Notes: generated from the letters alone by a model not told the origin. DNA of 64,000 nucleotides from Planctomycetota bacterium (GCA_039819165.1 JBCBSM010000002.1:453426-517425); one strand, 5' to 3'; numbered from the stretch's first letter, positions 14,204-28,069 are shown. Made by a program: numbers and translations.

Positions 14204-14860
14204 TCAGTCGATCGCGTCGCTCGGATCAGACCGTGTGCGTTTGCGCGCCTTCTTTGTCAACAGAAGAAGCTCCTCATCCGAGGCGAACCGCTCGCAGATG
14301 GCGCGCAGCTCATTCAGACCCTGTTCGAGTTCGTCGATCTCCCGCGCGGCCGCTGATACATCGAGCGGGTCGTACTTGTGATCCGTGTACATGGACTGGA
14401 CTAGATTCGCAACTTCCTCTCGACTCTCCGTAATCCCGAACATCGTCGAGATCACCAGTCCAGAACCGACGCCGTGGAGCGTCTTGACGCGGTCTCCCTT
14501 GTATCCGACAACTTCCGAGACCTTGTCTCGAAGCGTGGGATCTACGAAGCTGAGGACATCTTGGCCCATGAGCAGACCAGAGATGGAGTACAGCCGACCG
14601 GCTTGCAGGTGAACGAAGACTTTGAACTGTTCGAGGATTGTGGCGGCGTCTTCGTCTGATGCTCTTTCGAGCGTCTGAAGGGGATCGCAGCCGCCAAGTT
14701 CCAAGAGGGCGCGGCCATCCTCCACAACGTCCAGCAGAACGAAGTAGATCGAAAGCAGTTCGAGGAGCGCGTCTTCCCTCGCCTTTTTGGATCTAAGTCC
14801 AGCGACACCGCTTGCGCCCGTTCGGATGACATCGACTACGTTCTTGATGTCAGCGAACAT
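14204..14860 (-). CDS. hypothetical protein downstream of the methyltransferase
   Basis: ATG at 14860 (MFADIKNVVD), 10 nt after the M gene stop on the same strand. Predicted mostly helical, with no recognised motif. Confidence 0.45.
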   Translation of the reverse strand: MFADIKNVVDVIRTGASGVAGLRSKKAREDALLELLSIYFVLLDVVEDGRALLELGGCDPLQTLERASDEDAATILEQFKVFVHLQAGRLYSISGLLMGQDVLSFVDPTLRDKVSEVVGYKGDRVKTLHGVGSGLVISTMFGITESREEVANLVQSMYTDHKYDPLDVSAAAREIDELEQGLNELRAICERFASDEELLLLTKKARKRTRSDPSDAID

Positions 14861-14870
14861 GCAGGACCGC

Positions 14871-15866
14871 CTATGTTTCAGAGAACAGGGTTTCACGCCC
14901 CCGGATGGTCCGCAGATCGACTCCCGGTTCCGCAAGCGCTAGACCGTAGAGTTCGAGGAGTTCTTCCTCGGATGCTTGGGCACCCGCGAACCTGAAGATG
15001 GAGGCGGCGACATACTCGCGGTCGAGGTCGAACGACATCCATCGCCTTCCCTCTGCCTCGGCCACCTGACCAGTCGTGTTCGAGCCCGCGAAGATGTCAA
15101 CGACGAGATCTCCAGGATCCGACAGGAATCGGATGAAGAACTCGGGCAGCTTCGCTGGGAAACGCGCAGGATGACCTTTCACACCTGCGATCTTGCAGCC
15201 GCGTAGATACTGACCGTTCGATTCTGAGTTCGGGATCTGGAGGAGGTTCGATGGGATCGCGCCGCCGTTGTCTTTGCCGAAGCCCTTGCCGATGTCGTGG
15301 CCCGACGGGCGTTTCTTCGGTTCGTAGAACCCCTCCGGGTCCTTGAGGAGCTTCTTCATCCGCTCCGAGTATTCGGTGAGGACGCGCGTGACATCCGCCT
15401 TCGGATGAGGCGACTTCGAGAACCACCATACGTTGTTCACCGAGTCCTTCGCGCGGATCTTCCGCTTGTTCACCCACTCGATCGGACTCGGGAGCTTCGA
15501 GGGGTTGAACCAGTAGAAGTCCTCGGCGAGATGGAACCCGACCTCGTCACAGAAGCGGATCGCGACGCGGAACGTGTAGAGCGATCGGACGGGTACTCCC
15601 TTCTCGTACGCGCCGCCCAGGTCCAGGACGAAGCTCCCATCGTCGGCGAGCTTGCGATAGACGACCTCCGCGAAGCTCGTGAGCCAGTCGATGTAGTCGG
15701 ACCCGGTCTTGTTCCCGTACTCCTTCTGGCGCTGGAGAGCGAACGGCGGGCTCGTGACCACGAGGTTCACCGAGCCGTCGGCGAGGTCCTCCAGGAGGTC
15801 GAGGGAGTCGCCGCAGAACGCCGCGCCGAGTTCGGTTGAGTAGATCGGGGTCCGTCCATGCGCCAT
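14871..15866 (-). CDS. N4-cytosine/N6-adenine DNA methyltransferase, M.PvuII-like (beta class)
   Basis: Catalytic 'VVTSPPFAL' near the N-terminus and AdoMet motif 'VVDIFAGSNTTG' near the C-terminus (beta-class order). Divergent from the C and R genes, as in PvuII. Confidence 0.85.
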   Translation of the reverse strand: MAHGRTPIYSTELGAAFCGDSLDLLEDLADGSVNLVVTSPPFALQRQKEYGNKTGSDYIDWLTSFAEVVYRKLADDGSFVLDLGGAYEKGVPVRSLYTFRVAIRFCDEVGFHLAEDFYWFNPSKLPSPIEWVNKRKIRAKDSVNNVWWFSKSPHPKADVTRVLTEYSERMKKLLKDPEGFYEPKKRPSGHDIGKGFGKDNGGAIPSNLLQIPNSESNGQYLRGCKIAGVKGHPARFPAKLPEFFIRFLSDPGDLVVDIFAGSNTTGQVAEAEGRRWMSFDLDREYVAASIFRFAGAQASEEELLELYGLALAEPGVDLRTIRGRETLFSET

Positions 15867-15902
15867 CCAAGCCCTCCTCGTGAGTGCTACTTATATGCTG
15901 TA

Positions 15903-15913
15903 GACCGATAGTC
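15903..15913 (+). promoter_or_regulatory. candidate C-box half operator
   Basis: GACCGATAGTC has one mismatch to the GACTnnnAGTC C-box pattern as I recall it for PvuII-type controllers. It sits 24 nt upstream of the C-gene ATG. A convincing second box was not found. Confidence 0.3.
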
Positions 15914-15936
15914 GTCAACAGCCGACTGTTCCCTTC

Positions 15937-16173
15937 ATGGTATCGGGACGGTCGAGAACTCGGGCCCGGATGGTCTTCGCGGCGAACCTGCGCCGCATCC
16001 GCACCGATGTCGGCCTCTCCCAGGAAGCTCTCGCCGCAAAGGCGAAGCTGCACCGGACTTACGTCGGCTCAGTCGAGCGCGGCGAGCGCAACATCTCGAT
16101 CGACAACATGGAGAAGCTCGCGCACGCCCTCGGCGTCGTGGTGGTGGACCTCCTCGCGGAGGACGCCGCGTGA
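15937..16173 (+). CDS. R-M controller (C) protein, XRE-type HTH
   Basis: [48 protein letters not shown] is the typical C-protein signature. Its stop overlaps the GTG of the downstream endonuclease (GTGA at 16170-16173). An alternative start lies at 15970. Confidence 0.8.
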
Positions 16174-16682
16174 AGTCACACGACGACTACGAGGAACTCG
16201 TCAGGCTGTTCCCGGCGGTCCAGAAGTACCAGGAGCTGGCGAAGCGCCACGGGATCGACGACATCTTCCAGGACAACGGCGGAAAGCTCCTCCAGGTCCT
16301 CCTACTCCTCGGGCTCAAGATTCTCCCCGGTCGCCTCGGTAACGACGCGATCGACGCGGAGGGGAACGAGTACGAGTTGAAGTCGGTCAACACCGAACTC
16401 ACTCGGAGCTTCTCAACCCATCACCACCTCAACCCCGTCATCATCGAGAAGTACAGACAGGTTGACTGGATCTTCGCGGCATACGAGGGCATCGAGCTTC
16501 GGGAGGTCTATCTCCTCACGCCCGGCGATCTGGAGCCCTACTACGCGAAGTGGTGGGCGAAGTGGCACGACGAGGGCGGGAAGGACATCAACAACCCGAA
16601 GATTCCGCTCCGGTTTGTCCAGACCAACGGACGAAAGCTCTACCCGACCTCGGACGGTGGGTTGATCGAGCCATCTGGGTAG
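16170..16682 (+). CDS. type II restriction endonuclease, PvuII family
   Basis: 170 aa that appears near-colinear with R.PvuII as I remember it: [44 protein letters not shown] (the D/E-x-K catalytic residues), [23 protein letters not shown] and [13 protein letters not shown]. Confidence 0.85.
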
Positions 16683-16746: not shown

Positions 16747-16749
16747 AAG

Positions 16750-16823
16750 CACGGGCGGAAGGATTCGAACCCTCAACCTCCTGATCCGTAGTCAGGTGCT
16801 CTATCCAGTTGAGCTACGCCCGC
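16750..16823 (-). tRNA. tRNA-Arg (anticodon ACG)
   Basis: Hand-folded 74-nt cloverleaf: acceptor GCGGGCG/CGCCCGU (G1-U72 wobble), D arm GCUC-AACUGGAUA-GAGC, anticodon arm CCUGA-CUACGGA-UCAGG, variable AGGUU, T arm GAGGG-UUCGAAU-CCUUC. No encoded CCA. Confidence 0.9.
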
Positions 16824-16927: not shown

Positions 16928-18178
16928 ATGGCCAAGGCCGGAAACGCCCGGAAGCAACGGATACCCAAGCTCTGCTTCACCGAGAGCCGCGGTGTTGGCT
17001 GGCACGTCTCCTTCCGGGATCCTGATACTGGTATTCCCAAGAAGCACCGCTTCGGCGTGCGCGATCGTGCGGACGAACCGGAGGCCTTGCGGCGATATCA
17101 CCGCTGGGTCTCCGAATACCTCGGGAACTCGTCAGAGGAGGAACCACTCGTACCCGAACGGACGAGTACGAAGACCTCGAACAGGGGTGTTCGAGCACGC
17201 TCGCAGACCCAGGAAGCACTGTCGGGCTCACTCCTTGAGGTCGCAAACGGCCTCCTCGACGCCGAAGAGTCGCGCGTACGAGCCGAAGGCGACCCCCGAC
17301 GCCGAGGTTCTATCTCCGGCGCCTTATTCCGCGACCGCCGCAAGCAACTCCGGGACTTCCTGATCTTCTTGAATACCCGGCACGGCGCCGGAGCAGTGGG
17401 CCGAATGCGTCTTGAAGATCTCCGCATGCGAGATGTCGAGGAGTACAACCGATCGCTCGTTGAAGCTCGATTGTCGGCCTCCTTGGTGACGAAGCGGATG
17501 CAAATTGTGAAATCGCTGATCGATCGCGCCGGGCGTCCTGAGCACGGCCACCAGCAGCTTCCATGGAACTGGAATTCACGAGACGTTGCACACGGGGAAC
17601 CCGCTCGCGAACGCCAGCTGCCCACGGTCACACAACTGGAATCGCTCCTCGCCCACGCGGACGTTCGGGGCCAAGCGATGATCTGGCTTGGGATGGGCCT
17701 AGGCTTTGGCCCGCGTGATCTCGCGAGTGTCAGAGTTGGCCAGATCGCCCGTGACGCGTACGACCTCAGACGCGAGAAGACCGGTGTGGATCGCTATGGA
17801 GCCACCCCGCCATGTGTGTGGGCGCATCTTGAACGCTACCAGGCGGACAGTGGCAGACCGAGTGGATCTCTTCTATTTGTGACAAGAACCGGGCGCCCGG
17901 TCGTACACGGAGCGACCAACACTATTGCCACTTGGTGGCGTCAACTGAAGATCCAAACCGGCCTCCAAGACACTGTCGACGGCTTCTATGTACTACGACA
18001 CTTGGGAGCTACAGAGCACGGCTCTCGACCAGGAGCGTCGATCGGTAACGTAAAGCGTTGGCTGGGTCATGCCACCAGCTCACAGGTTGCCGATGTCTAC
18101 ATGCGACCAGTTGCTCCGGAACACCGACTGGTGATCGACTGGCTGCGGTCACATCTAGATGCCAGTTCCACCAAATAA
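16928..18178 (+). CDS. tyrosine-type site-specific integrase
   Basis: 416 aa. C-terminal catalytic region has ...PRDLASVRVG, VLRHLGATEHG and GHATSSQVADVYMRP (the R..H-x-x-R..Y pattern). Lies about 100 bp from the 5' side of tRNA-Arg. Confidence 0.85.
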   Translation: MAKAGNARKQRIPKLCFTESRGVGWHVSFRDPDTGIPKKHRFGVRDRADEPEALRRYHRWVSEYLGNSSEEEPLVPERTSTKTSNRGVRARSQTQEALSGSLLEVANGLLDAEESRVRAEGDPRRRGSISGALFRDRRKQLRDFLIFLNTRHGAGAVGRMRLEDLRMRDVEEYNRSLVEARLSASLVTKRMQIVKSLIDRAGRPEHGHQQLPWNWNSRDVAHGEPARERQLPTVTQLESLLAHADVRGQAMIWLGMGLGFGPRDLASVRVGQIARDAYDLRREKTGVDRYGATPPCVWAHLERYQADSGRPSGSLLFVTRTGRPVVHGATNTIATWWRQLKIQTGLQDTVDGFYVLRHLGATEHGSRPGASIGNVKRWLGHATSSQVADVYMRPVAPEHRLVIDWLRSHLDASSTK

Positions 18179-18677: not shown

Positions 18678-19976
18678 TCAGGTCGATACGGCAGTCAGAT
18701 ATGATTTCCGAGATCGTCCGCGCTTTTGGGTCCAAGCAGCGGCGGCATCCGGATCCGAATCTGGTCGCATCCTGACAGGGTTCAAAATCGTGCGCGGACG
18801 ATTTGCCATTCTTGTGAGCAGTGCCTCGTTCGCGCATCGGACGATGCCGCATAGCTCTTGATTCGGCCGTCGACGTTTGGCTAGTTGGAGTTCACATCCA
18901 ATCGCACGCCCTAGACCAACAGGCACAGCATTCCCGATCTGCTTGTACTTCTGCGGGATCCCACCCGCGAATTTCCACCACTTCGGAAACTGCTGAATGG
19001 CCGCGTACTCTTCAACAGCGAGTGGTCGCAACTCGGTGGGATGACAGAGCATGGTGGCCTTGCTGTCAGGGCGTGTCGTCAACGCTGGAGACGGGCGATC
19101 CCATGCCAACCTTCGAAAGAAGCCTACTCTTCCTCCCCAGGAATCAAACGCTCCGCCGAGAGCTTCGCGCTGCAGCCTCGCAGGTAAATCTCGCCAGTTT
19201 CCACCTGCAGGAACAAGACTCAGGTAGCGCCTTTTGCTCTGACATAGATCTGTGTGCGTTCGTGGTAAGCCTGCCAACTCGTCGAGAACAACCCGCAAGT
19301 TCACCCAGGGGTTAGACCGGGAGTCCCGCCCATGAGTAGGCTTCGGTGTCGAAACAGGATTGCCGTCTCTTGAACCGAGAATAATGACTCTTTCTCGAGT
19401 CTGAGGGACACCGTAGTCAGCCGTATTGACAAGATCGAAAGAGATGTGGTAGCCCGTCTCGGCGAGCTCATCCACTATTTTCTTGAATGCGGATCCCAGC
19501 TCTTCGCTAGGGCGCAGCGGAGGAAAGGCGGGACCGCGTTCGGCCAGGGGACGATGCTTGATCGCTGCCGACAGCACTCCGCGGACGTTCTCCATCACAA
19601 AGAACCGTGGTTGTGCTTCGTGTACTACACGGAGGAACTCACGAAACAGACTCCCGCGATCATCTACGAGTGAACCTCTCTGGCCAGCAGTGCTGAACGC
19701 TTGGCAGCATGGACCGCCAACAACGAGTTCGACTTCACCCGCATCCAGCTCGGCGATCTCCAGAAGTTCGGAAGTCGGAACTGATTCGATCGGCCGATCA
19801 ACAAGACCAAAGCCGCACCTCTGCATGAGCTGGATCGAAGGTCGATTCTGACGAATTGTGTCAACTGCAAACCTATCGATCTCGACCAGTGTCCGGATCT
19901 GATAACCGGCTTGAATGAGCCCAAGATCAAGGCCCATTGCGCCCGAGAACAAAGATATGACGGAACGGCGGGACAC
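18678..19976 (-). CDS. dcm: DNA (cytosine-5)-methyltransferase
   Basis: Motif I ISLFSGAMGLDLG, IV GGPCCQAFSTAG, VI ENVRGV, VIII QTRERVIILG, X GNAVPVGLGRAIG. GTG start is 3 nt after the RHH gene stop. Confidence 0.9.
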   Translation of the reverse strand: MSRRSVISLFSGAMGLDLGLIQAGYQIRTLVEIDRFAVDTIRQNRPSIQLMQRCGFGLVDRPIESVPTSELLEIAELDAGEVELVVGGPCCQAFSTAGQRGSLVDDRGSLFREFLRVVHEAQPRFFVMENVRGVLSAAIKHRPLAERGPAFPPLRPSEELGSAFKKIVDELAETGYHISFDLVNTADYGVPQTRERVIILGSRDGNPVSTPKPTHGRDSRSNPWVNLRVVLDELAGLPRTHTDLCQSKRRYLSLVPAGGNWRDLPARLQREALGGAFDSWGGRVGFFRRLAWDRPSPALTTRPDSKATMLCHPTELRPLAVEEYAAIQQFPKWWKFAGGIPQKYKQIGNAVPVGLGRAIGCELQLAKRRRPNQELCGIVRCANEALLTRMANRPRTILNPVRMRPDSDPDAAAAWTQKRGRSRKSYLTAVST

Positions 19977-19978
19977 TG

Positions 19979-20197
19979 CTATCGCTCTGCCTTTCTAGAT
20001 GCAACAGGGTTTCCGAAGTCGAGAGGCAGTTGCCCATCGTCCGCACGCCCAATCAATTCCCGAACAGCATACTCGACGACGTACCGCAGGCTCAGCGGTG
20101 GCTGACGTCCTTCGGCAAGCTCCCTGAGGCGCTCATAGGCATCCTCGGGGAGCGAAATTGTGAACCGCTTCACCGGATGGTCTTTCGGTGGTGACAT
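19979..20197 (-). CDS. ribbon-helix-helix (CopG/Arc-type) DNA-binding protein
   Basis: ATG at 20197 (MSPPKDHPVKRFTISLPEDAYERLRELAEGRQPPLSLRYVVEYAVRELI) gives a beta-strand plus two helices. It is the first gene of the RHH-dcm pair. Confidence 0.7.
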   Translation of the reverse strand: MSPPKDHPVKRFTISLPEDAYERLRELAEGRQPPLSLRYVVEYAVRELIGRADDGQLPLDFGNPVASRKAER

Positions 20198-20199
20198 AC

Positions 20200-20235
20200 T
20201 GCACCAGTATGCACCACTCTGCACCGGGATGCAAG
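20200..20235. promoter_or_regulatory. four 10-bp-phased direct repeats (TGCACC x3, TGCAAG) - probable RHH operator
   Basis: TGCACCAGTA TGCACCACTC TGCACCGGGA TGCAAG begins 3 nt upstream of the RHH start, in the divergent intergenic region. Confidence 0.55.
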
Positions 20236-20319
20236 GGGGAGTGCCCCAGTTTTTCCCCAAGCCCTGTCGCGCAGGAGGCACTTTCTAGTAGAGCCACTGT
20301 CTGACCGGAGCCCCCCGCG

Positions 20320-20988
20320 TTGATTGATCCAAGCACCATCGATAGTGAACATCATGCCGCCGATGCCGCGGCCAAGGCGGCGATTGCTGGGCAACCCGGA
20401 CAGATGCTCGTTGAGCTGCGCGCCGCTGGCTTCCTCGACGCCGCCGCAAAGACTCTGCGAGGCAAGCACCCCGCACTCGACCACGACCAAGTTGACGCCT
20501 CCATCGCAGAGGGGATCGATGAAACCTATAGACGATGCCGATCAGCCGGTCAGATTCGCAACTTCACTGCCTACATCTGGAAAGTAGCCCATCACAAGTG
20601 CTCGGCCCGCGCCCGAGTGGTTGCGCGAGAGTCATCTCTGGAGCACACGCCTCCACCGCAAGCCCCCGGCAGTGGGATCCCCGAATCGGAAGCCGAAGAC
20701 CGCGAGAGCCTTCGCGAAGGCTTGCGAGTAGCGCGAAGCCTCATCCCGAGACTCGGGCAAGAGAACGTTGTGACTGTGATGACGTTACTGCTAGAAGCAG
20801 TCGAATCCGGCGTATTTTATGTGAGCGCAGCTGATATCAGTGATGCAACGGGCTTAAGTGAGAACACTGTGCGCCAGTGTCTAAGTAGAGGACGCCGCCG
20901 CCTTCGCGAGCTCGCTCGTCAGCAAGGGTTCTGTGTCGACGCCAGTATCGAATATACCGCACGATCCGCTGAAGGAGATCACGCGTGA
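20320..20988 (+). CDS. sigma-70 family (ECF-like) protein
   Basis: Region-2-like IRNFTAYIWKVAHHKCSARAR and region-4 HTH ADISDATGLSENTVRQCLSRGRRRLRELA. TTG at 20320 or ATG at 20404. Its stop overlaps the next gene's start (GTGA). Confidence 0.55.
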   Translation: MIDPSTIDSEHHAADAAAKAAIAGQPGQMLVELRAAGFLDAAAKTLRGKHPALDHDQVDASIAEGIDETYRRCRSAGQIRNFTAYIWKVAHHKCSARARVVARESSLEHTPPPQAPGSGIPESEAEDRESLREGLRVARSLIPRLGQENVVTVMTLLLEAVESGVFYVSAADISDATGLSENTVRQCLSRGRRRLRELARQQGFCVDASIEYTARSAEGDHA

Positions 20989-22529
20989 CAAACTCTGACC
21001 TGGACGTTCACTCGGGCGACGCCTCGAGCCACCCGACTGACGAGCACGGAACCTTCGGACGCATTCTGGACGTACTCGAGCAGGCTGCGACGGATCCTCA
21101 CGATGAGATCCTCGCGAGCGTACGTAGAGCTGTTGGCGAGCCGCTGCCCCCCGACGAGGCCGTGCGTCTGCTCCGTGTGGTAGTCGAACGACTCCAGCGG
21201 TCGATTTCAGATGAGAGCATTAGTGCTGAAGCAAGCGCATTAGTTGGCGATGCTCGTCAGCTGGCCGAACAGATCGAAGCTGAAGCATCCGCTCGCAAGG
21301 CCGATGCGCCGTCACCATTGCGACTTTGGCTTGAGGACGCCTCATATGTTGAGCCACGACCGTGGTTCCACGGCCAAGAGATCCGCATGAAGCAGGGCTA
21401 CGTGGACACACGCGATATACAACTCTGGCCGCATAACGAACGCCTGGAGATTCACCTGGCCCAGTTCCGCCAGCGTACCGGCCGTGAGCCATCGGCAGAG
21501 GAACTGATTGACATCATGCTCAGTCGGATGGACCTGCCGGGCGCTCCGGATGGTGATGATCGTGACCAGTTCAAGATTGTTCAGCTCGCTCGCAGCATCG
21601 CCATCAATGGCGTTCGCAAACCGCCAATCTTGGCATCCGACGGGCGGCTGCTTGACGGCAATCGCAGGGTCACCGCGTGCCAATACATCCTCCATAATCC
21701 TGAGTTTGGCGCCCACGAGAAACGTCGTGCTGCCAGAATTTTTGTGTGGCAGATGACCGAGGATGCCACTGACGACGAGTGCGACAAAGTTGTTGTGTCG
21801 CTCAACTTTGAGCCGGACTGTAAAGAAGATTGGCCGGAGTACGTTAAGGCTCGAAAGGTCCACGAGGAATGGAGATCACGTCTAGCCCTTGAGCCGAGAG
21901 AACCTGGGCCCAAGGAGCAAACTCGCATCCGCAAGGACATCTCAAAGCAGTTTGCGCTCGGCCCTGATGCCAGCCATGTGAATCGATACATCAAGATGGT
22001 CGAAATGGCCGATGAGTTTGAAGAGTATCAGCAGCTGGATCGCAGAAAGGATGAATACGAAACAAAGCATCGATCGAGCGAGTACTTTCAGTACTTTGAT
22101 GAGCTGCAGAAGGGGAAGAATGCCGGTGGAGTTGCTTGGTCTCTCGGGCAAGACGATGCGTTCAAGCACACGGTCTTCGACCTACTTTACGATGGCAAGT
22201 TCAAGAATTTTGCGCAGATCCGGGATCTGAAGCACATCTACGCCAACCAGGAAGCGCGAGATGTTCTACGCAAGGCTCGTGAGGAGTCAGATCCGGATGA
22301 GGCCCAGGAGCGCATAGCCGAGGCAATCGCGATCGCTCGAACGGCAAAAGCCGAAGCGAGAGAGCTTGGAGCAAACACGCGGATTGAGACGTTCGTCAAG
22401 TGGCTTGAGGAACTTCCCCTCCGCACATTCCGCGACACAGTTACGGACCGCAATCGGACCCGGCTGCATGAATCGCTTTCCTTGGTCAGTCACTATATCG
22501 GTGCGATCGAGACCGAGGAGAGCTCGTGA
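20985..22529 (+). CDS. ParB/Srx N-terminal-domain protein with long helical C-terminal region
   Basis: RBS GAAGGAG precedes the GTG. Motifs VDTRDIQLWPHNER, LARSIAINGVRKPPILASDGRLLDGNRRVTAC (GxRRxxA arginine patch). The remaining approximately 270 aa are charged and helical. Confidence 0.6.
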   Translation: MTNSDLDVHSGDASSHPTDEHGTFGRILDVLEQAATDPHDEILASVRRAVGEPLPPDEAVRLLRVVVERLQRSISDESISAEASALVGDARQLAEQIEAEASARKADAPSPLRLWLEDASYVEPRPWFHGQEIRMKQGYVDTRDIQLWPHNERLEIHLAQFRQRTGREPSAEELIDIMLSRMDLPGAPDGDDRDQFKIVQLARSIAINGVRKPPILASDGRLLDGNRRVTACQYILHNPEFGAHEKRRAARIFVWQMTEDATDDECDKVVVSLNFEPDCKEDWPEYVKARKVHEEWRSRLALEPREPGPKEQTRIRKDISKQFALGPDASHVNRYIKMVEMADEFEEYQQLDRRKDEYETKHRSSEYFQYFDELQKGKNAGGVAWSLGQDDAFKHTVFDLLYDGKFKNFAQIRDLKHIYANQEARDVLRKAREESDPDEAQERIAEAIAIARTAKAEARELGANTRIETFVKWLEELPLRTFRDTVTDRNRTRLHESLSLVSHYIGAIETEESS

Positions 22530-24289
22530 ACGCTCGTCCCTTTGTTGATGTCAAGGTCGATGCTGCTCTACGCGGCTTGGTCCTCACTCCTCGGGATCCT
22601 TCCCAATCGGTACTCGTCGCGGCAGCTCTTCGCGAGACGAATCCAGGTATCTCACTGCGCCGTTCGGCAGCTTCCCTAGTAATCGCTGACGCTGGTGTTG
22701 GGCAGGTGATCCTACCGGAGGAGCGTCTTGGGACATTGTGGACTGAGGAGGCCACTCGCTACATCGAGAATCGGCGCGTACGACGACCGTTGCACCATGC
22801 CAATCGATCAGATGCCATGGCACTGCAAGGCCGATCTCGAGCAGAACTGCTTGACGATCTTGGCCATACGGATGGGCTTGAAGTACTGGATGATCACCAG
22901 GTAACCAATGTCGCAGTCATGACGGCACCAGGACTGTGCGGAGCCTGCGTGTTTGATGAACAGGGAGCAGGGAAGACTGTCTCGCTGATCTTTGCATTCG
23001 ACCAACTAGTTCAGCGCAATGAAGTGGACTCTGCTCTGATCGTCGCACCGAAAAGCATGGTGGCAGAGTGGCCGAATGACTTCACCAGATTTTGCGGCGA
23101 TCTCTACAGCGTCATGGTCATTGGCGGCACGCGAAAGGAGAAACGGAAAGCAATCAAGAGCGGAGCCGATGTACTCGTCACCAACTTCGAGACGGTGGTC
23201 TCCATGGAGCCGGATCTCGCAGCTGTGCTGAGGCGTCGATGTCCGCGAAGTGTGCTTGTGGTTGATGAGTCGTTCTATGTGAAGAACATCGATGCAAAGC
23301 GCACCAGATCCTTGCGGAGGCTGCGCGAGTGGTGTGGGCGGGCATACGTACTGTGTGGTACTCCAGCTCCGAATGCTGCGTCGGATGTGGTAGAACAGTT
23401 CAATCTGGTGGACTTTGGCGCAACCTTCTCGGGAGTGTCAATTCCAGACGACCGCGAGTCAGCGTTGCCTGTTGTACGGGAGCGGCTGCAGGAATGCGGT
23501 GTCTTTATCAGACACTTGAAGCAAGACGTGCTGCCAGATCTCCCTCCAAAGGTGATTCGGCCGACCGTTGTACGACTGCAGCCCCAGCAACGGGCAGCAT
23601 ACGAAGCGGCTCTGACTAGCTTGTATGACGATCTCAAGCAGACAACCGATATCTCGTTTCGGAAGCAGATCTCGTCATTCCTGGCACGCCGGTCAGCGTT
23701 ACTACAGCTGTGCTCGGCGCCTCAGGCTGTTCTCGACGATTATCGCGAAACCCCCACGAAGTTGCTGGCTCTCGAAGAGATTCTCCTAGAAGTTGTTCGA
23801 AGACGAAATGAGAAGATGGTCATATGGTCGTTCTATACGAAGTCAATTGAATCCATCATGGGATTGTGCGAGCCATATAGACCTGTTCGGTACGATGGCA
23901 CAGTTTCTGACACAGCTGTACGTCGCGACTTGGTATCGCGCTTTCAAGAGGACGATTCGACGATGGTCATGGTGGCCAACCCCGCCGCGGCTGGTGCCGG
24001 CTTGACGTTGCATCGCGCTCGTGTGTCTGTTTGTGAATCGATGTCAAACCAGGCCGCGCATTACCTTCAGAGCTTGGATCGGATTCACCGTCGTGGGCAG
24101 ACGCGTGATGTCGAGATCATTGTTCTGCTTTGCGAGGAGACCTTGGAGATGGACGAGTACGACCGGCTGCAGCGCAAGGAAGCAGCTGGGCAGAACCTGA
24201 TGGGTGATCCGTGTACCTCGACAGTGAGCCGCGATCAGATGTTGGCAGAGATGATAGCGGGACTCAAGAAAGTGGGCCGGCAGCCGTAG
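22526..24289 (+). CDS. SNF2-family helicase/translocase
   Basis: Motif I DEQGAGKT, II VVDESFYVKN, III LCGTPAPN, V/VI ANPAAAGAGLTL and QSLDRIHRRGQTRDV. GTGA overlap with the upstream gene. Confidence 0.85.
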   Translation: MNARPFVDVKVDAALRGLVLTPRDPSQSVLVAAALRETNPGISLRRSAASLVIADAGVGQVILPEERLGTLWTEEATRYIENRRVRRPLHHANRSDAMALQGRSRAELLDDLGHTDGLEVLDDHQVTNVAVMTAPGLCGACVFDEQGAGKTVSLIFAFDQLVQRNEVDSALIVAPKSMVAEWPNDFTRFCGDLYSVMVIGGTRKEKRKAIKSGADVLVTNFETVVSMEPDLAAVLRRRCPRSVLVVDESFYVKNIDAKRTRSLRRLREWCGRAYVLCGTPAPNAASDVVEQFNLVDFGATFSGVSIPDDRESALPVVRERLQECGVFIRHLKQDVLPDLPPKVIRPTVVRLQPQQRAAYEAALTSLYDDLKQTTDISFRKQISSFLARRSALLQLCSAPQAVLDDYRETPTKLLALEEILLEVVRRRNEKMVIWSFYTKSIESIMGLCEPYRPVRYDGTVSDTAVRRDLVSRFQEDDSTMVMVANPAAAGAGLTLHRARVSVCESMSNQAAHYLQSLDRIHRRGQTRDVEIIVLLCEETLEMDEYDRLQRKEAAGQNLMGDPCTSTVSRDQMLAEMIAGLKKVGRQP

Positions 24290-24610: not shown

Positions 24611-25201
24611 TCACTCCAGTATGCCAGTTCTTGGATTGATCAGCAGAATTGCGTCTCTATCCACGATCGCACCGCCTGAACCTTGCGTGATCGGCATCTG
24701 GAACTTCATGATCGCCTGGATGTAGGCACGCGGCGTGTCATCATTGCTCGCCCTGGCCTCTACATGGAAGAGCTGCCCCTTCTTGAGCGTTCCGGACGGC
24801 GCACCGTCGGTGACTATCAGATCCATCGTGTGATAACATACAATCTCGTCCGGACCATTATTGTCTCGAGGCCTAATACAATATAGCGTACTCGAATTCC
24901 CGGAGGTCATCGCTTCCAATGCCGTACCGTGATCCTTATGACCGAGTATATTCTCGTTCACCCATCCGTGCGCTTTTATATTACTATAAAAAGGCTTTAC
25001 ACCCGTCGCACTCACCCCGAGCCATTTCCTACGCACTTCTGCCTTTGCAAACTCATCGATCAGGGGCAACGCAGCCACTCCTGCGTTCTTTCGAAATTCC
25101 TTGTCGTGCGACATGCGACCGAAGTCGATCTCTAAGTACACGCTGATGTCTTTCGCCGGAATCTCGGTTAGCTCTGCGGCCATGGCCATGTCCCTTCTCA
25201 C
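24611..25201 (-). CDS. hypothetical protein (third gene of the ECF-STK operon)
   Basis: 196 aa and AT-richer than its neighbours. Its start overlaps the kinase stop (GTGA at 25198-25201), with an alternative ATG a few codons in. No recognised motif. Confidence 0.45.
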   Translation of the reverse strand: MRRDMAMAAELTEIPAKDISVYLEIDFGRMSHDKEFRKNAGVAALPLIDEFAKAEVRRKWLGVSATGVKPFYSNIKAHGWVNENILGHKDHGTALEAMTSGNSSTLYCIRPRDNNGPDEIVCYHTMDLIVTDGAPSGTLKKGQLFHVEARASNDDTPRAYIQAIMKFQMPITQGSGGAIVDRDAILLINPRTGILE

Positions 25202-27426
25202 TGGGTGTCTAGATCTTCGCTTCGCGCGCAGCGGAAGCCGAAAGCCACTCGTCGCTGCGATGGAGACATCATGCTGGCACTCAAATCAACCAACTCATTT
25301 TGATCACCACGTGTCCAGGGCTCGCCCACAATGGTCCAAAATCCGCTCGCCTCGGCCTGCGAAGCCGGGGATTTTGGCAGCACGTAGGGCGTCTCCGTCC
25401 ATTCGGTTACGTTGCCGAGCACGTGCGTGACACGCTTGCCAGCAATCTCAATATAGTCCTGGGCGTAGTCACCAACGGACTTGACCCGGCTCGCGATGTA
25501 CGCCTGCAACTCTGCCCGGTGTGCCGCCGGCACTAGAGTCAACTCCGACCAGCCATCGATCAGTCGCCCATCGACGCCCTGCGCTTCGTCGGCCGGCAGC
25601 CGGTGCTCGCGAGACGCGTTGTACGTGTTCGCTCGGGCACGGATCGATGGCACATCGCTGGGCTCATTGCCCCACGGAAAGCGCCGTGCATCGGCACCCC
25701 GAGCCATGAACTCCCACTCGAGGGCGGTCGGCAGCCGCTTGCCGCTCCATTCAGCGAATCGCTGCGCTTCCTCCCACGTGACTCCGGTCACGGGCAACTC
25801 TGCCCAGCCGTCGGGATGGACAGGTCCATCCCAGATCGGTGGCGGCTCAGCCTCGGTGTCATCGACAAACTTGGCGTACTCTGCGCATGTAACTTCAGTG
25901 GCATCGATCCAATACGAAACGAGACCGGTCACACGCCTGGAGTATGCAGTATCCGCTTCAACCGGAAGGCGCCGAACGACAAACACCATGTCTTTGGTCG
26001 CTTTCTGCCGCGGAACGACGTGCCCTTTAATTTCCACACGAGCGGCTCGTGGTACGAGTCTCGTAAATTCGGCTTGATGCCCTTCCGCGTTGATTATAAT
26101 GAAACGGATTAGTCCAAACGGGACTTCGTGCACACGATCGGCGCGGCCGAGCAGCACGGGGTCGTGTACACGTCCAGACCTCATGTCAATTTCTCGCATC
26201 CAGATAGTGGCTGAACGACCAAATGTAGATGCATCGACAAATTGCCGTTCGTGGTCCGGACCTACGAAGAACGCCGCACCGATCGCGATGCCGGCCGCCA
26301 TCGTGGCCAACGCACCAATCATGTACCGACGTGTGTACACCACGCGCTTTACGCGGCGCATGGGAGTTGCTGGTCTAGCGAGTATTGGAGCACCTTCAAG
26401 CCACGCTCGAAGATCCGCCGCCATGTGCCCCGCGGTCGGATACCGGTGCGTCGGCTCCTTCTCCAGAGCCTTGAGACAGACGATAGACAGGTCCTTTGGG
26501 ACCGTTGGATCCACCATCGTTGGCGATCTGGGGTGAGAGCACCGCACTGCTTCGAGGACCTGATGGATCGTCTCGCCTTCAAACGGCTTGATCCCGGTGA
26601 GCGATTCGTACATGACCGCCCCGAGCGAGAAGATGTCTGATCGCCTATCGATCTTCACCTGTCCCTGAGCGACCTGTTCTGGACTCATGTACTGCGGTGT
26701 CCCTGCGATGCTCCCATCGATGGTGAGCGTGTCCACCGCGACGATCTTGGCGATGCCGAAGTCAGTGAGCCTTGCCCGATTGCCCGAATCGATCAGGATG
26801 TTAGACGGCTTGACGTCGCGATGAATGACCGGCGGGTCGTTGCTGTGCGCAATCTCCAGCGCACGAGCAACCTGTTCGATGATCGACGCGACGCGGCGGA
26901 TGTGCTCCTTGGCGGCTCGTCGATTTAGCTCGCCGCCGTTGCGTGTCACTGCGGCATCCCGTTCATGGGCACGCCATTCGGCGAGAGTCGGGCCGTCGAC
27001 ATGCTCCATGCACAGGTAATGCTGGCCGTGATCCTCACCAAACTGGTAGATCTGCACGATGCCCGGCGCTGCCAAGCCAGCCACGACCTTGGCTTCGTGA
27101 TAGAACCGAGCCAGCGCTGTTGGGTCGGCCGCGCGCGCGCCAGAGAGAATCTTGAGAGCTACTGGCCGCTCCAAGATCTCATCATGAGCAAGATACACGA
27201 TCCCCATCCCGCCTTCGCCAAGCTTTCGGACGATGCGAAAGTGGGCGAGTGCGCTCGGGGCCTCTTCAGGACTGATTGGCTCGTGCGATCGCAGCAGCGC
27301 TTCGATACGCTCCCGGGCCTTGGCATCAGGACATGCCCCACGAAGGAACGCATCTCGATCTGCAGCGGCGACAGCCAGGGCCGCGAGGAACACCGCTTTT
27401 TCGTCCACGGGCTTGGTCACGCGCAT
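25198..27426 (-). CDS. Ser/Thr protein kinase fused to FGE-sulfatase (SUMF1-like) domain
   Basis: Kinase motifs GEGGMGIVYLA, VALK, HRDVKPSNILI, DFGIAK and GTPQYMSPE. A TM helix (IGALATMAAGIAIGAAFFV) follows. The C-terminal FGE-like part has YWIDATEVTCAEYAKF, GVTWEEAQRFAEWSGKRLPTALEWEFMARG and NVTEW. Confidence 0.85.
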   Translation of the reverse strand: MRVTKPVDEKAVFLAALAVAAADRDAFLRGACPDAKARERIEALLRSHEPISPEEAPSALAHFRIVRKLGEGGMGIVYLAHDEILERPVALKILSGARAADPTALARFYHEAKVVAGLAAPGIVQIYQFGEDHGQHYLCMEHVDGPTLAEWRAHERDAAVTRNGGELNRRAAKEHIRRVASIIEQVARALEIAHSNDPPVIHRDVKPSNILIDSGNRARLTDFGIAKIVAVDTLTIDGSIAGTPQYMSPEQVAQGQVKIDRRSDIFSLGAVMYESLTGIKPFEGETIHQVLEAVRCSHPRSPTMVDPTVPKDLSIVCLKALEKEPTHRYPTAGHMAADLRAWLEGAPILARPATPMRRVKRVVYTRRYMIGALATMAAGIAIGAAFFVGPDHERQFVDASTFGRSATIWMREIDMRSGRVHDPVLLGRADRVHEVPFGLIRFIIINAEGHQAEFTRLVPRAARVEIKGHVVPRQKATKDMVFVVRRLPVEADTAYSRRVTGLVSYWIDATEVTCAEYAKFVDDTEAEPPPIWDGPVHPDGWAELPVTGVTWEEAQRFAEWSGKRLPTALEWEFMARGADARRFPWGNEPSDVPSIRARANTYNASREHRLPADEAQGVDGRLIDGWSELTLVPAAHRAELQAYIASRVKSVGDYAQDYIEIAGKRVTHVLGNVTEWTETPYVLPKSPASQAEASGFWTIVGEPWTRGDQNELVDLSASMMSPSQRRVAFGFRCARSEDLDTQ

Positions 27427-27490: not shown

Positions 27491-28069
27491 CTATTCTCGT
27501 GCGTCCAGTCGTTCGCGCAGCCACGCCATTCCGTACTCGACATGCTGGCGGACACGGTGCAAGGTGACCCCCATCAACTCGGCGGTCTCGCGGAGGGAGC
27601 GACCCGCCAGCTGATGGAGCTCGACTGCTCGGGCGGCGTCCGGGTCCGTCGCTCGCAACGCATCCATGCCATCGCGGAGATCCGTGGCGGCGATACGCGT
27701 GCTCGATTGGTCCGCCAGTTCGACAAGCATCTCGCGTCTTCGCCCATGCCCTCGCTTTACCGTCGCGTGCCTCCGAGCTTCTTCGACGAACACGTCGTGC
27801 ATAGCGCGACCCAGTAAAAAGAAGAAGTGGGCCCTATCTTCCACGCAGGGTTGGTCTCGACCCAGTAGTCGAACGCACGCCATATTGACCAATTCAGTCC
27901 CGCGGAGCACGTCAATACCGACCCCCTTTGATGTCAGCAGGGACTGGGCAGCCCGCCGAAGCTCACCCTCAACGCGGTAGAAGAGCTGATCTTCAGCACC
28001 TGGTTCACCGGCACGAGCTGCCTGGATCAACCGTGTCACGGTACCATCTGGATCCGTGCGGTTCTTCAT
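27491..28069 (-). CDS. ECF-type RNA polymerase sigma factor (PF07638-like)
   Basis: N-terminus VTRLIQAARAGEPGAEDQLFYRVEGELRRAA and C-terminal HTH LAGRSLRETAELMGVTLHRVRQHVEYGMAWLRE. Lies 65 nt upstream of the kinase gene on the same strand. Confidence 0.8.
   Translation of the reverse strand: MKNRTDPDGTVTRLIQAARAGEPGAEDQLFYRVEGELRRAAQSLLTSKGVGIDVLRGTELVNMACVRLLGRDQPCVEDRAHFFFLLGRAMHDVFVEEARRHATVKRGHGRRREMLVELADQSSTRIAATDLRDGMDALRATDPDAARAVELHQLAGRSLRETAELMGVTLHRVRQHVEYGMAWLRERLDARE

Follow-up and report, generated by a model that had tools for sequence, protein, structure and literature searches.

DISARM is a multi-gene, methylation-linked defence system whose components include a DNA methylase and an SNF2-family ATPase, with no obvious requirement for a classical restriction nuclease. 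ParB-fold, SNF2 and DNA-modifying proteins are also encoded together in Dpd, with its ParB-like DpdB and its SNF2 protein DpdE, and alongside DndB in Dnd; DpdB is a ParB-like ATPase that assists DNA modification. In type II Dcm-Vsr systems, which are mobile and patchily distributed, a Dcm methylase is accompanied by Vsr or Mig repair enzymes and by a small DNA-binding regulator with operator repeats. Operons of extracytoplasmic function (ECF) sigma factors place the sigma gene first and couple its partner to it translationally, as do sigma/anti-sigma pairs and the Csx30/RpoE genes of type III-E CRISPR systems. Finally, the motifs and fold of the ParB N-domain recur in KorB-KorA, in the ParB activators of phage 5mYOX and in ParB-Sigma70 fusions, and published work shows ParB-CTPase folds serving transcription factors or DNA-modifying enzymes as nucleoside triphosphate (NTP) switches (PMC13229309, PMC12704722). 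Here we describe a five-gene locus that shares features with each of these. It lies at 18678-24289 of a stretch of 64,000 nucleotides (nt), given as one strand, from a Planctomycetota bacterium (GCA_039819165.1, JBCBSM010000002.1:453426-517425); this whole stretch is hereafter the window, and positions are counted from its first letter unless a related locus is named. The locus encodes a DNA methyltransferase (Dcm) and a ribbon-helix-helix (RHH) regulator on the minus strand and, divergently on the plus strand, a sigma-like protein, a ParB-like protein and an SNF2-family ATPase (the trio). The original prediction, made from the sequence of the window alone, had described the locus in these terms, and the translations place all five open reading frames (ORFs), both of the start/stop overlaps and every motif it quoted where it had put them.

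The module is real, conserved, rare and horizontally spread. Scanning one genome per species (185,579 species), we found 61 related loci in at least 13 phyla, which include Cyanobacteriota, Planctomycetota, Verrucomicrobiota, Actinomycetota, Acidobacteriota and Pseudomonadota, as well as Nitrospirota, Chloroflexota, Bacteroidota, Bacillota and Gemmatimonadota. Nitrospirillum iridis DSM 22198, Roseateles asaccharophilus, Neobacillus sp. DY30 and Nocardia caishijiensis are among the carriers in culture. By tblastn and ORF clustering, the sigma-like gene is present in 51 of the 61 loci, the SNF2 gene in 53, and a Dcm gene within 10 kb in 52, so the trio that had been proposed as a unit does co-occur in other genomes. 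The order sigma-like, ParB-like, SNF2 on a single strand is invariant across the loci, and the genes mostly overlap. Dcm lies on either side of the trio in the relatives and in either orientation; in an actinobacterial branch (L047, L050 and L052) it shares one strand with the trio and with c9, an unnamed family described below. The ParB-like protein is about 50% identical to relatives in Cyanobacteriota, Actinomycetota, Acidobacteriota, Pseudomonadota, Bacillota and others, and its pairwise identities correlate with those of Dcm (r = 0.87), SNF2 (r = 0.80) and the sigma-like protein (r = 0.87; Mantel p = 0.001). This correlation of the identity matrices indicates that Dcm and the trio are inherited together. 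The synteny, with one gene order in over 50 loci, and the co-variation led us to reject the idea that unrelated genes have come to lie side by side by chance. Among 133 flanking ORFs, the commonest Pfam families are those of integrases and recombinases; genes for AbiE, HipA, conjugation and restriction-modification (type IIG and Bpu10I) are present too.

Clustering of all ORFs from the 61 loci left as conserved families only the sigma-like, ParB-like, SNF2, Dcm, c9, Vsr, HhH-GPD, RHH and prephenate-dehydratase-like (PDT-like) proteins. None of DrmA/B/C, DpdA/C, ZorA/B/C, PglZ/BrxC or the Mad partners is among them, which bears out the earlier statement that the genes defining DISARM, Dpd and BREX are missing; DrmA, DrmB and DrmC were also without a PADLOC match among the window genes scanned. 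Nor does any existing model of a named system in PADLOC v2 match the ParB-like or the sigma-like protein, in a database (PADLOC-DB v2) that dates from 2023 and whose coverage ends before later-named systems. A full-text literature search, which included the relevant comparative-genomics papers, found no description of the gene set. The module is apparently undescribed, with known domains in a new combination.

The differences from each of the systems above are specific. The Dcm protein matches DrmMII (E = 5.8e-85) and the SNF2 protein matches DrmD (E = 4e-23), but the conserved families do not include the DISARM proteins DrmA (helicase), DrmB (DUF1998) or DrmC (PLD), and DISARM itself has neither a sigma-like nor a ParB-like protein. 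Unlike Dpd, the module has no DpdA transglycosylase and no DpdC, its 5-methylcytosine (m5C) would be made by an ordinary Dcm, and neither DpdB nor DndB models match its ParB-like protein. Compared with type II Dcm-Vsr systems, the RHH gene precedes the methylase, whereas there a helix-turn-helix (HTH) C-protein precedes the nuclease, and the presumed restriction side is an NTPase assembly of three to four proteins instead of a single endonuclease. Relative to ECF sigma/anti-sigma pairs, the sigma-like protein scores below the cut-offs and its partner has a predicted ParB fold and belongs to no known anti-sigma family. The ParB-like protein, for its part, differs from the ParB-CTPase accessory proteins in its large and unique helical C-terminal region.

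We accept the ParB-like protein (20985-22529, plus strand; 514 residues) as a predicted ParB/Srx fold. Its AlphaFold2 model (mean predicted local distance difference test score, pLDDT, 80.4; built on 21 homologues) has three regions: four N-terminal helices (residues 19-105), an alpha/beta ParB-N-like domain (approximately residues 120-260) with the motifs LARSIAINGVRKPPI, DGNRRVTA and NFEPD, and a large, conserved helical C-terminal region (residues 263-513). The top five Foldseek matches of the model in the PDB are all ParB proteins, including pNOB8 ParB-N and Spo0J (1vz0; probability 0.97, TM-score on the target 0.46, E = 0.054). In the viral library BFVD it matches DdrB-like and ParB proteins (E = 2e-6 to 1e-4), followed by many ParB-named entries, and PHROG gives weak matches to ParB families (E about 2e-3 to 6e-3). 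The window protein has no Pfam or NCBIfam match, ParB_N (PF02195) included; short-form relatives reach PF02195 with E = 9e-4 and 0.017, under the cut-off; the best PADLOC v2 model is an unconvincing PD-Lambda-5_A (E = 0.0026); and searches of solved structures by sequence, with the protein and with its family profile, returned only coiled-coil and designed-helix noise. The family alignment has 98 invariant columns, among them L201-S204, G209, P214, D224-R228, A231, N274 and E276, and contains motifs that resemble ParB boxes: LARSIxxNGVxxPPI (box I), DGNRRxxA (box II) and NFExD (box III). The ParB/Srx assignment of the original prediction thus holds for fold, motifs and family, but not at the level of Pfam or NCBIfam, where the matches are missing or below curated cut-offs. 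More than 500 homologues exist at about 50% identity, all unnamed, and the profile retrieves only 309 clusters from 1.84 billion representative proteins (E <= 0.001). Such a number cannot include the abundant canonical ParB proteins, and the family is therefore small and isolated. ParB-fold proteins bind CTP, ATP or GTP, with an NTP specificity that is unpredictable from sequence, and a survey of the ParB-CTPase fold reports fusions with Sigma70 domains, which bind ATP (PMC12704722). In a phage, the DNA thymine dioxygenase is activated by a homologue of ParB (PMC13229309).

The ParB-like gene is preceded by the sigma-like gene (20320-20988, plus strand; 222 residues, with an uncertain start codon), named a sigma-70 family sigma factor by NCBI (MEO1009563.1). 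Residues 58-197 of its product align with positions 28-163 of the 165 of the sigma70-ECF model TIGR02937, at 23.5 bits (cut-off 42.9; E = 3.6e-5). In an alignment of 28 family members drawn from the related loci, 24 match the same model (E <= 0.01, best 1.1e-9), all below its curated cut-off, and seven match the model of the type III-E CRISPR-associated sigma factor. The alignment keeps signatures of region 2 (WLWKxAxNxAxDxxR) and region 4 (RGLxRLRR). PADLOC v2 has no model for the protein, the best being mad1 across 26 residues only (E = 0.0022). From these sequence features we regard it as sigma-like, divergent in sequence and with both a sigma2 and a sigma4 region: the ECF-like call made earlier is supported for the family, through the relatives and the motifs, but the single protein falls under the TIGR02937 cut-off. 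In the DNA that precedes the sigma-like genes, a k-mer search for a shared promoter gave nothing clear, with coding sequence as a confounder.

A number of observations tie the sigma-like protein to one part of its neighbour. Every ParB-like protein with the N-terminal region of about 110 residues has a sigma-like gene upstream. Conversely, all eight short forms, which start at about profile position 110-124, come without a sigma-like gene; at one of these loci (L054, 9887-11167) the SNF2 and c9 genes are still present. In addition, a database ORF of 738 residues, P0154, fuses a sigma-like part to a ParB-like part (hhalign probability 98%, E = 1.5e-13), a fusion that may be a frameshift artefact. 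Together with the published ParB-CTPase/Sigma70 fusions, the co-variation and P0154 suggest that the ParB-like N-domain is a docking site for the sigma-like protein. By analogy, we infer that the sigma-first, coupled layout and the four-helix N-domain recall ECF sigma/anti-sigma pairs. The coupling is read directly from the DNA: the trio is chained by GTGA start/stop overlaps at 20985-20988 and 22526-22529, each with a GGAG-type ribosome-binding site 6-8 nt upstream.

The third protein of the trio (22526-24289, plus strand; 587 residues) is an SNF2-family ATPase, as had been proposed: it matches PF00176 (E = 1.2e-25; 90.6 bits against a cut-off of 24.9) and Helicase_C, PF00271 (E = 7.4e-9; 36.3 bits against 23.5), and its motifs are intact (Walker A DEQGAGKT, DExx box DESF, motif VI QSLDRIHRRGQ). 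It also matches PHROG_62 (E = 1.6e-76) and, in PADLOC, ZorD (E = 6e-35, residues 138-532), DpdE (E = 1e-30) and DrmD, in each case by the helicase core only. A conserved N-terminal region of about 120 residues has no domain assignment. The overlapping GTG start is to be favoured over the shorter NCBI call of 490 residues, because relatives align from residues 1-8 of the 587-residue ORF. The earlier alternative, in which an element-encoded sigma factor and a RapA-like remodeller would redirect host RNA polymerase, may hold but gained no support: no RapA-specific domain matched in Pfam at E <= 0.01, or in Pfam and NCBIfam across thresholds of 0.01-0.1. Sequence matches of the protein also include the eukaryotic HELLS and DDM1; as Rad54-like proteins, Fft3 and ISWI score alike, these matches probably reflect generic similarity of the SNF2 core.

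The methyltransferase gene (18678-19976, minus strand; 432 residues) is named a DNA cytosine methyltransferase by NCBI (MEO1009562.1). Its product matches PF00145 (E = 2.6e-55; 188.5 bits against a cut-off of 22) and TIGR00675 (174.7 bits against 100.65), as well as the PADLOC models MTase_II (E = 2.9e-88), DrmMII and DruM. The motifs I (FSGAMG), IV (GGPCCQ), VI (ENV), VIII (QTRER) and X (GNAVP) are all read in the translation, so the enzyme is the complete m5C methyltransferase it had been taken for. A C-terminal tail of roughly 65 residues is kept in the relatives from the module, and Dcm homologues with 49-61% identity adjoin the trio in most related loci. Among solved structures, its best sequence matches are the catalytic domains of eukaryotic DNMT1 (E about 3e-26, mainly residues 278-366), which rank before M.HaeIII and M.HhaI; this similarity may be generic.

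The RHH regulator, of CopG/Arc type (19979-20197, minus strand; PF01402, 23.2 bits against a cut-off of 20.5), is encoded ahead of Dcm here and in at least 12 related loci. Two nt, and not three as first reported, separate its stop codon from the Dcm start. The ORF is open to 20281, and the start is most likely the ATG at 20197, which gives 72 residues, because this start aligns with the relatives and lies 3 nt from a set of repeated boxes. These boxes (20200-20239; no strand assigned) consist of three copies of TGCACC and one of TGCAAG with an exact 10-bp period; they lie between the divergently oriented genes and start 3 nt ahead of the ATG. Three to five GTGCA/TGCGCA-type boxes with the same period occur upstream of the RHH gene in at least ten other loci of other phyla (L010, L014, L019, L021, L024-L026, L030, L033 and L048). 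The boxes are probably the RHH operator; some boxes are palindromic (TGCGCA, GTGCAC). The RHH gene lies between Dcm and the sigma-like gene, whose accessions are consecutive, and thus it appears to be unannotated in the public record.

Further genes accompany the module in the relatives. Vsr (PF03852, E = 4e-29) stands beside Dcm in 16 loci, and an HhH-GPD glycosylase (PF00730), sometimes fused to the C-terminus of Dcm, is found in 13. Both are usual companions of m5C methylases and repair the T:G mismatches that arise when 5-methylcytosine is deaminated. The unnamed family c9, of about 145 residues, is encoded directly after SNF2 in 28 loci (within L005-L054; for example L023, 13328-13762). 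Its invariant motifs (H-E, P-D-V and G-(E/D)-A-K) and an order of strands and helices compatible with PD-(D/E)xK enzymes make it a candidate PD-(D/E)xK-like nuclease. The earlier remark that no nuclease is visible stands for the window, where the c9 hidden Markov model finds no copy, but 28 relatives carry this candidate.

A distant branch of ParB-like proteins (about 370 residues, 24-30% identity) has no N-terminal helical domain and occurs without SNF2 or sigma-like genes. It is encoded in tight operons of Dcm, in some cases Vsr, and the ParB-like gene, followed by a 388-residue PDT-like protein (PF00800, E = 2e-10), at L054 (4606-6987) and at L056-L061 (for example L057, 8166-12221), in Verrucomicrobiota, Bifidobacteriaceae, Margulisiibacteriota, Lentisphaerota and one Altiarchaeota archaeon. 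This branch may be a separate undescribed system linked to Dcm.

Which function fits these observations? We tentatively favour, at somewhat less than an even chance, a mobile, NTP-driven defence module that resembles restriction-modification. A number of features typical of restriction-modification are best fitted by this reading: 1) the RHH gene with its putative operator boxes; 2) the Vsr and Mig-type repair genes; 3) the candidate nuclease; 4) the patchy distribution; and 5) the integrases and restriction-modification genes in the flanks. The closest matches of the SNF2 protein in the defence libraries are ZorD, DpdE and DrmD. Of the two forms in which methylation-linked surveillance had been proposed, defence is the best fit by gene context, but anti-restriction is without support, because the ParB-like protein has no tblastn match in 50,697 phage and 72,556 plasmid records. 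In the proposed mechanism, RHH would bind the 10-bp-periodic boxes and limit the expression of Dcm, which would mark the host DNA with 5-methylcytosine, and in the relatives Vsr or the Mig-type glycosylase would repair the T:G mismatches left by deamination of the mark. The sigma-like, ParB-like and SNF2 proteins would form a single complex, in which the ParB-like subunit would be a nucleotide-controlled DNA-binding switch or clamp, its N-terminal helical domain would hold the sigma-like subunit, and the SNF2 motor would translocate along DNA. This complex would act on unmarked DNA, through c9 in about half of the relatives; in copies lacking c9, including that of the window, either the ParB-fold domain would be the active part or the DNA would not be cut at all, the mode of action commonly proposed for BREX and DISARM.

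Several points weigh against this defence reading. The copy in the window and about half of the relatives have no recognisable nuclease, and where c9 is present its assignment rests on the motif: it has no Pfam match, and Foldseek finds no significant match for its AlphaFold model (pLDDT 77). The ParB fold is weakly assigned by E-value against solved structures (0.054, as given above). Five loci of Nostocales (an example of such a genome is Calothrix sp. NIES-4101, AP018280.1) carry the trio with neither Dcm within 10 kb nor c9 nearby, and restriction in these would need a methylase encoded elsewhere. The survey of the flanks is descriptive and found housekeeping genes too. A sigma-like subunit has, to our knowledge, no precedent in restriction enzymes, and the restriction model gives it no necessary role.

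The sigma-like subunit is central to another explanation, which we consider unlikely but the strongest of the competitors. The module would be a switch of the sigma/anti-sigma type, and the sigma-like protein a true sigma factor of RNA polymerase. The ParB-like N-domain would hold this factor until a signal such as foreign or unmethylated DNA, read by the ParB-like protein as a nucleotide-controlled DNA sensor with the help of the SNF2 motor, sets it free or links it to RNA polymerase; the outcome would be a reprogramming or silencing of transcription and not the cleavage of DNA. The four-helix N-terminal region of the AlphaFold2 model resembles class I anti-sigma domains. The perfect co-variation of this region with the sigma-like gene, the gene layout with its translationally coupled partner, the retained signatures of regions 2 and 4, the seven relatives that match the type III-E sigma model, and the P0154 fusion all point the same way, as do the ATP-binding ParB-CTPase/Sigma70 fusions (PMC12704722). 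However, every sigma match is below the curated cut-offs, P0154 may be an artefact, we found neither a conserved promoter dependent on sigma nor a target regulon, and the SNF2 protein has no RapA-specific domain. This switch also leaves unexplained why Dcm and its repair partners are inherited with the trio, unless methylation status is itself the signal, in which case it becomes a variant of the defence reading. Such a variant, in which a ParB-fold NTP switch with an anti-sigma-like N-domain and the SNF2 protein would scan the DNA and release or deploy the sigma-like subunit upon meeting unmarked DNA, is in our view rather improbable as judged from the sequences. The sigma-like protein could then be a transcriptional alarm or could target RNA polymerase on foreign DNA. 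If true, the scheme would be a novel type of immunity or silencing that ties the reading of DNA methylation to RNA polymerase, with a sigma/anti-sigma pair that responds to the epigenetic state of the DNA.

The frequent association with Dcm could also be taken at face value: the ParB-like, SNF2 and sigma-like proteins would load or activate the methylase, so that it methylates DNA efficiently or at selected loci, and the module would be epigenetic instead of immune. We hold this to be a poor prospect, of lower probability than the schemes above. Dcm is common to both ParB-like branches, that of the long proteins with SNF2 and that of the short ones in the Dcm-Vsr-ParB-like-PDT-like operons, and the correlation of ParB-like with Dcm identities equals the highest of any pair. 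DNMT1 is the best sequence match of Dcm among solved structures, and HELLS and DDM1, eukaryotic remodellers that assist DNA methylation, are among the SNF2 matches. Precedents are offered by DpdB, with its help in the DNA modification of Dpd. Another is the ParB homologue that activates the phage thymine dioxygenase (PMC13229309). Yet such Dcm enzymes usually work unaided, the trio persists in the five cyanobacterial loci that have no Dcm nearby, c9 would be left without a role in 28 loci, and the resemblance to HELLS and DDM1 is probably of the generic kind described above. Finally, that the module is a divergent member of DISARM, Dpd, Zorya, BREX or MADS is very improbable: Dcm matches DrmMII and DruM, SNF2 matches ZorD, DpdE and DrmD, and Dpd likewise pairs a ParB-like with an SNF2 protein, but no defining partner is among the conserved families, the SNF2 matches are confined to the helicase core, and the ParB-like protein fits no model of the 2023 database convincingly.

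The genomic setting in the window is that of a small island. The GC content falls from about 0.70 to 0.54-0.62 across roughly 14-29 kb, and an integrase (16928-18178; PHROG_1, E = 6.8e-16) adjoins a tRNA-Arg (16749-16823), in agreement with the earlier description of lower-GC cargo beside an integrase. The module lies within this low-GC DNA, flanked by the integrase and a PvuII restriction-modification system on one side and by host-like genes on the other. The borders of the island are defined by GC content only; we found neither a second copy of the tRNA-Arg 3' segment nor convincing direct repeats flanking 13-31 kb. Counts from a scan for consensus promoters and terminators over 18.2-25.4 kb were at or under shuffle expectation and hence uninformative. 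The PvuII-type system is complete (14871-16682) and stands next to the tRNA-Arg 3' end, with an N4/N6 methylase (14871-15866, minus strand; PADLOC MTase_II, E = 2.2e-169), a small HTH controller gene (15937-16173, plus strand) and a PvuII-family endonuclease (16170-16682, plus strand; PF09225, E = 3.4e-65); with the five-gene module it makes a two-system island. An ORF of 243 residues (14204-14935, minus strand) shares 65 nt with the end of the gene for the PvuII-type methylase and matches nothing in Pfam, PADLOC, NCBIfam or PHROGs; it may be spurious, or it may encode a partner of the PvuII-type system that has gone unrecognised. On the other side, an ORF of 196 residues (24611-25201, minus strand) overlaps by 4 nt the end of a 742-residue ORF (25198-27426, minus strand), whose translation reads like a Ser/Thr protein kinase, and an ORF at 27491-28069 (minus strand) reads like an ECF-type sigma factor. 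None of these three is conserved beside the module in related loci. No library gives a family match for the 196-residue ORF, and a collection of 15 billion proteins does not contain its exact sequence. A remnant of c9 was looked for after SNF2 and not found; the 196-residue ORF, with its 4-nt overlap, belongs to the operon of the upstream kinase-like gene.

If the module is a defence system, as we tentatively favour, it would be a compact and well-delimited addition to those systems, BREX and DISARM among them, that are guarded by methylation and whose exclusion mechanisms are still debated, and the first of this type built on a ParB-fold NTP switch and a sigma-like protein. The module is small, with four to six genes, and hence tractable, and its natural variants, with or without the candidate nuclease, the sigma-like protein or SNF2, offer a ready-made deletion series. 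That a DNMT1-like Dcm is found together with an SNF2 ATPase bears, as a lead only, on ideas that the methylation machinery of eukaryotes arose from bacterial conflict systems. If the link between the sigma-like and ParB-like proteins is real, then the state of the DNA would be a new input for sigma/anti-sigma signalling, and the ParB-CTPase fold would have a new role.

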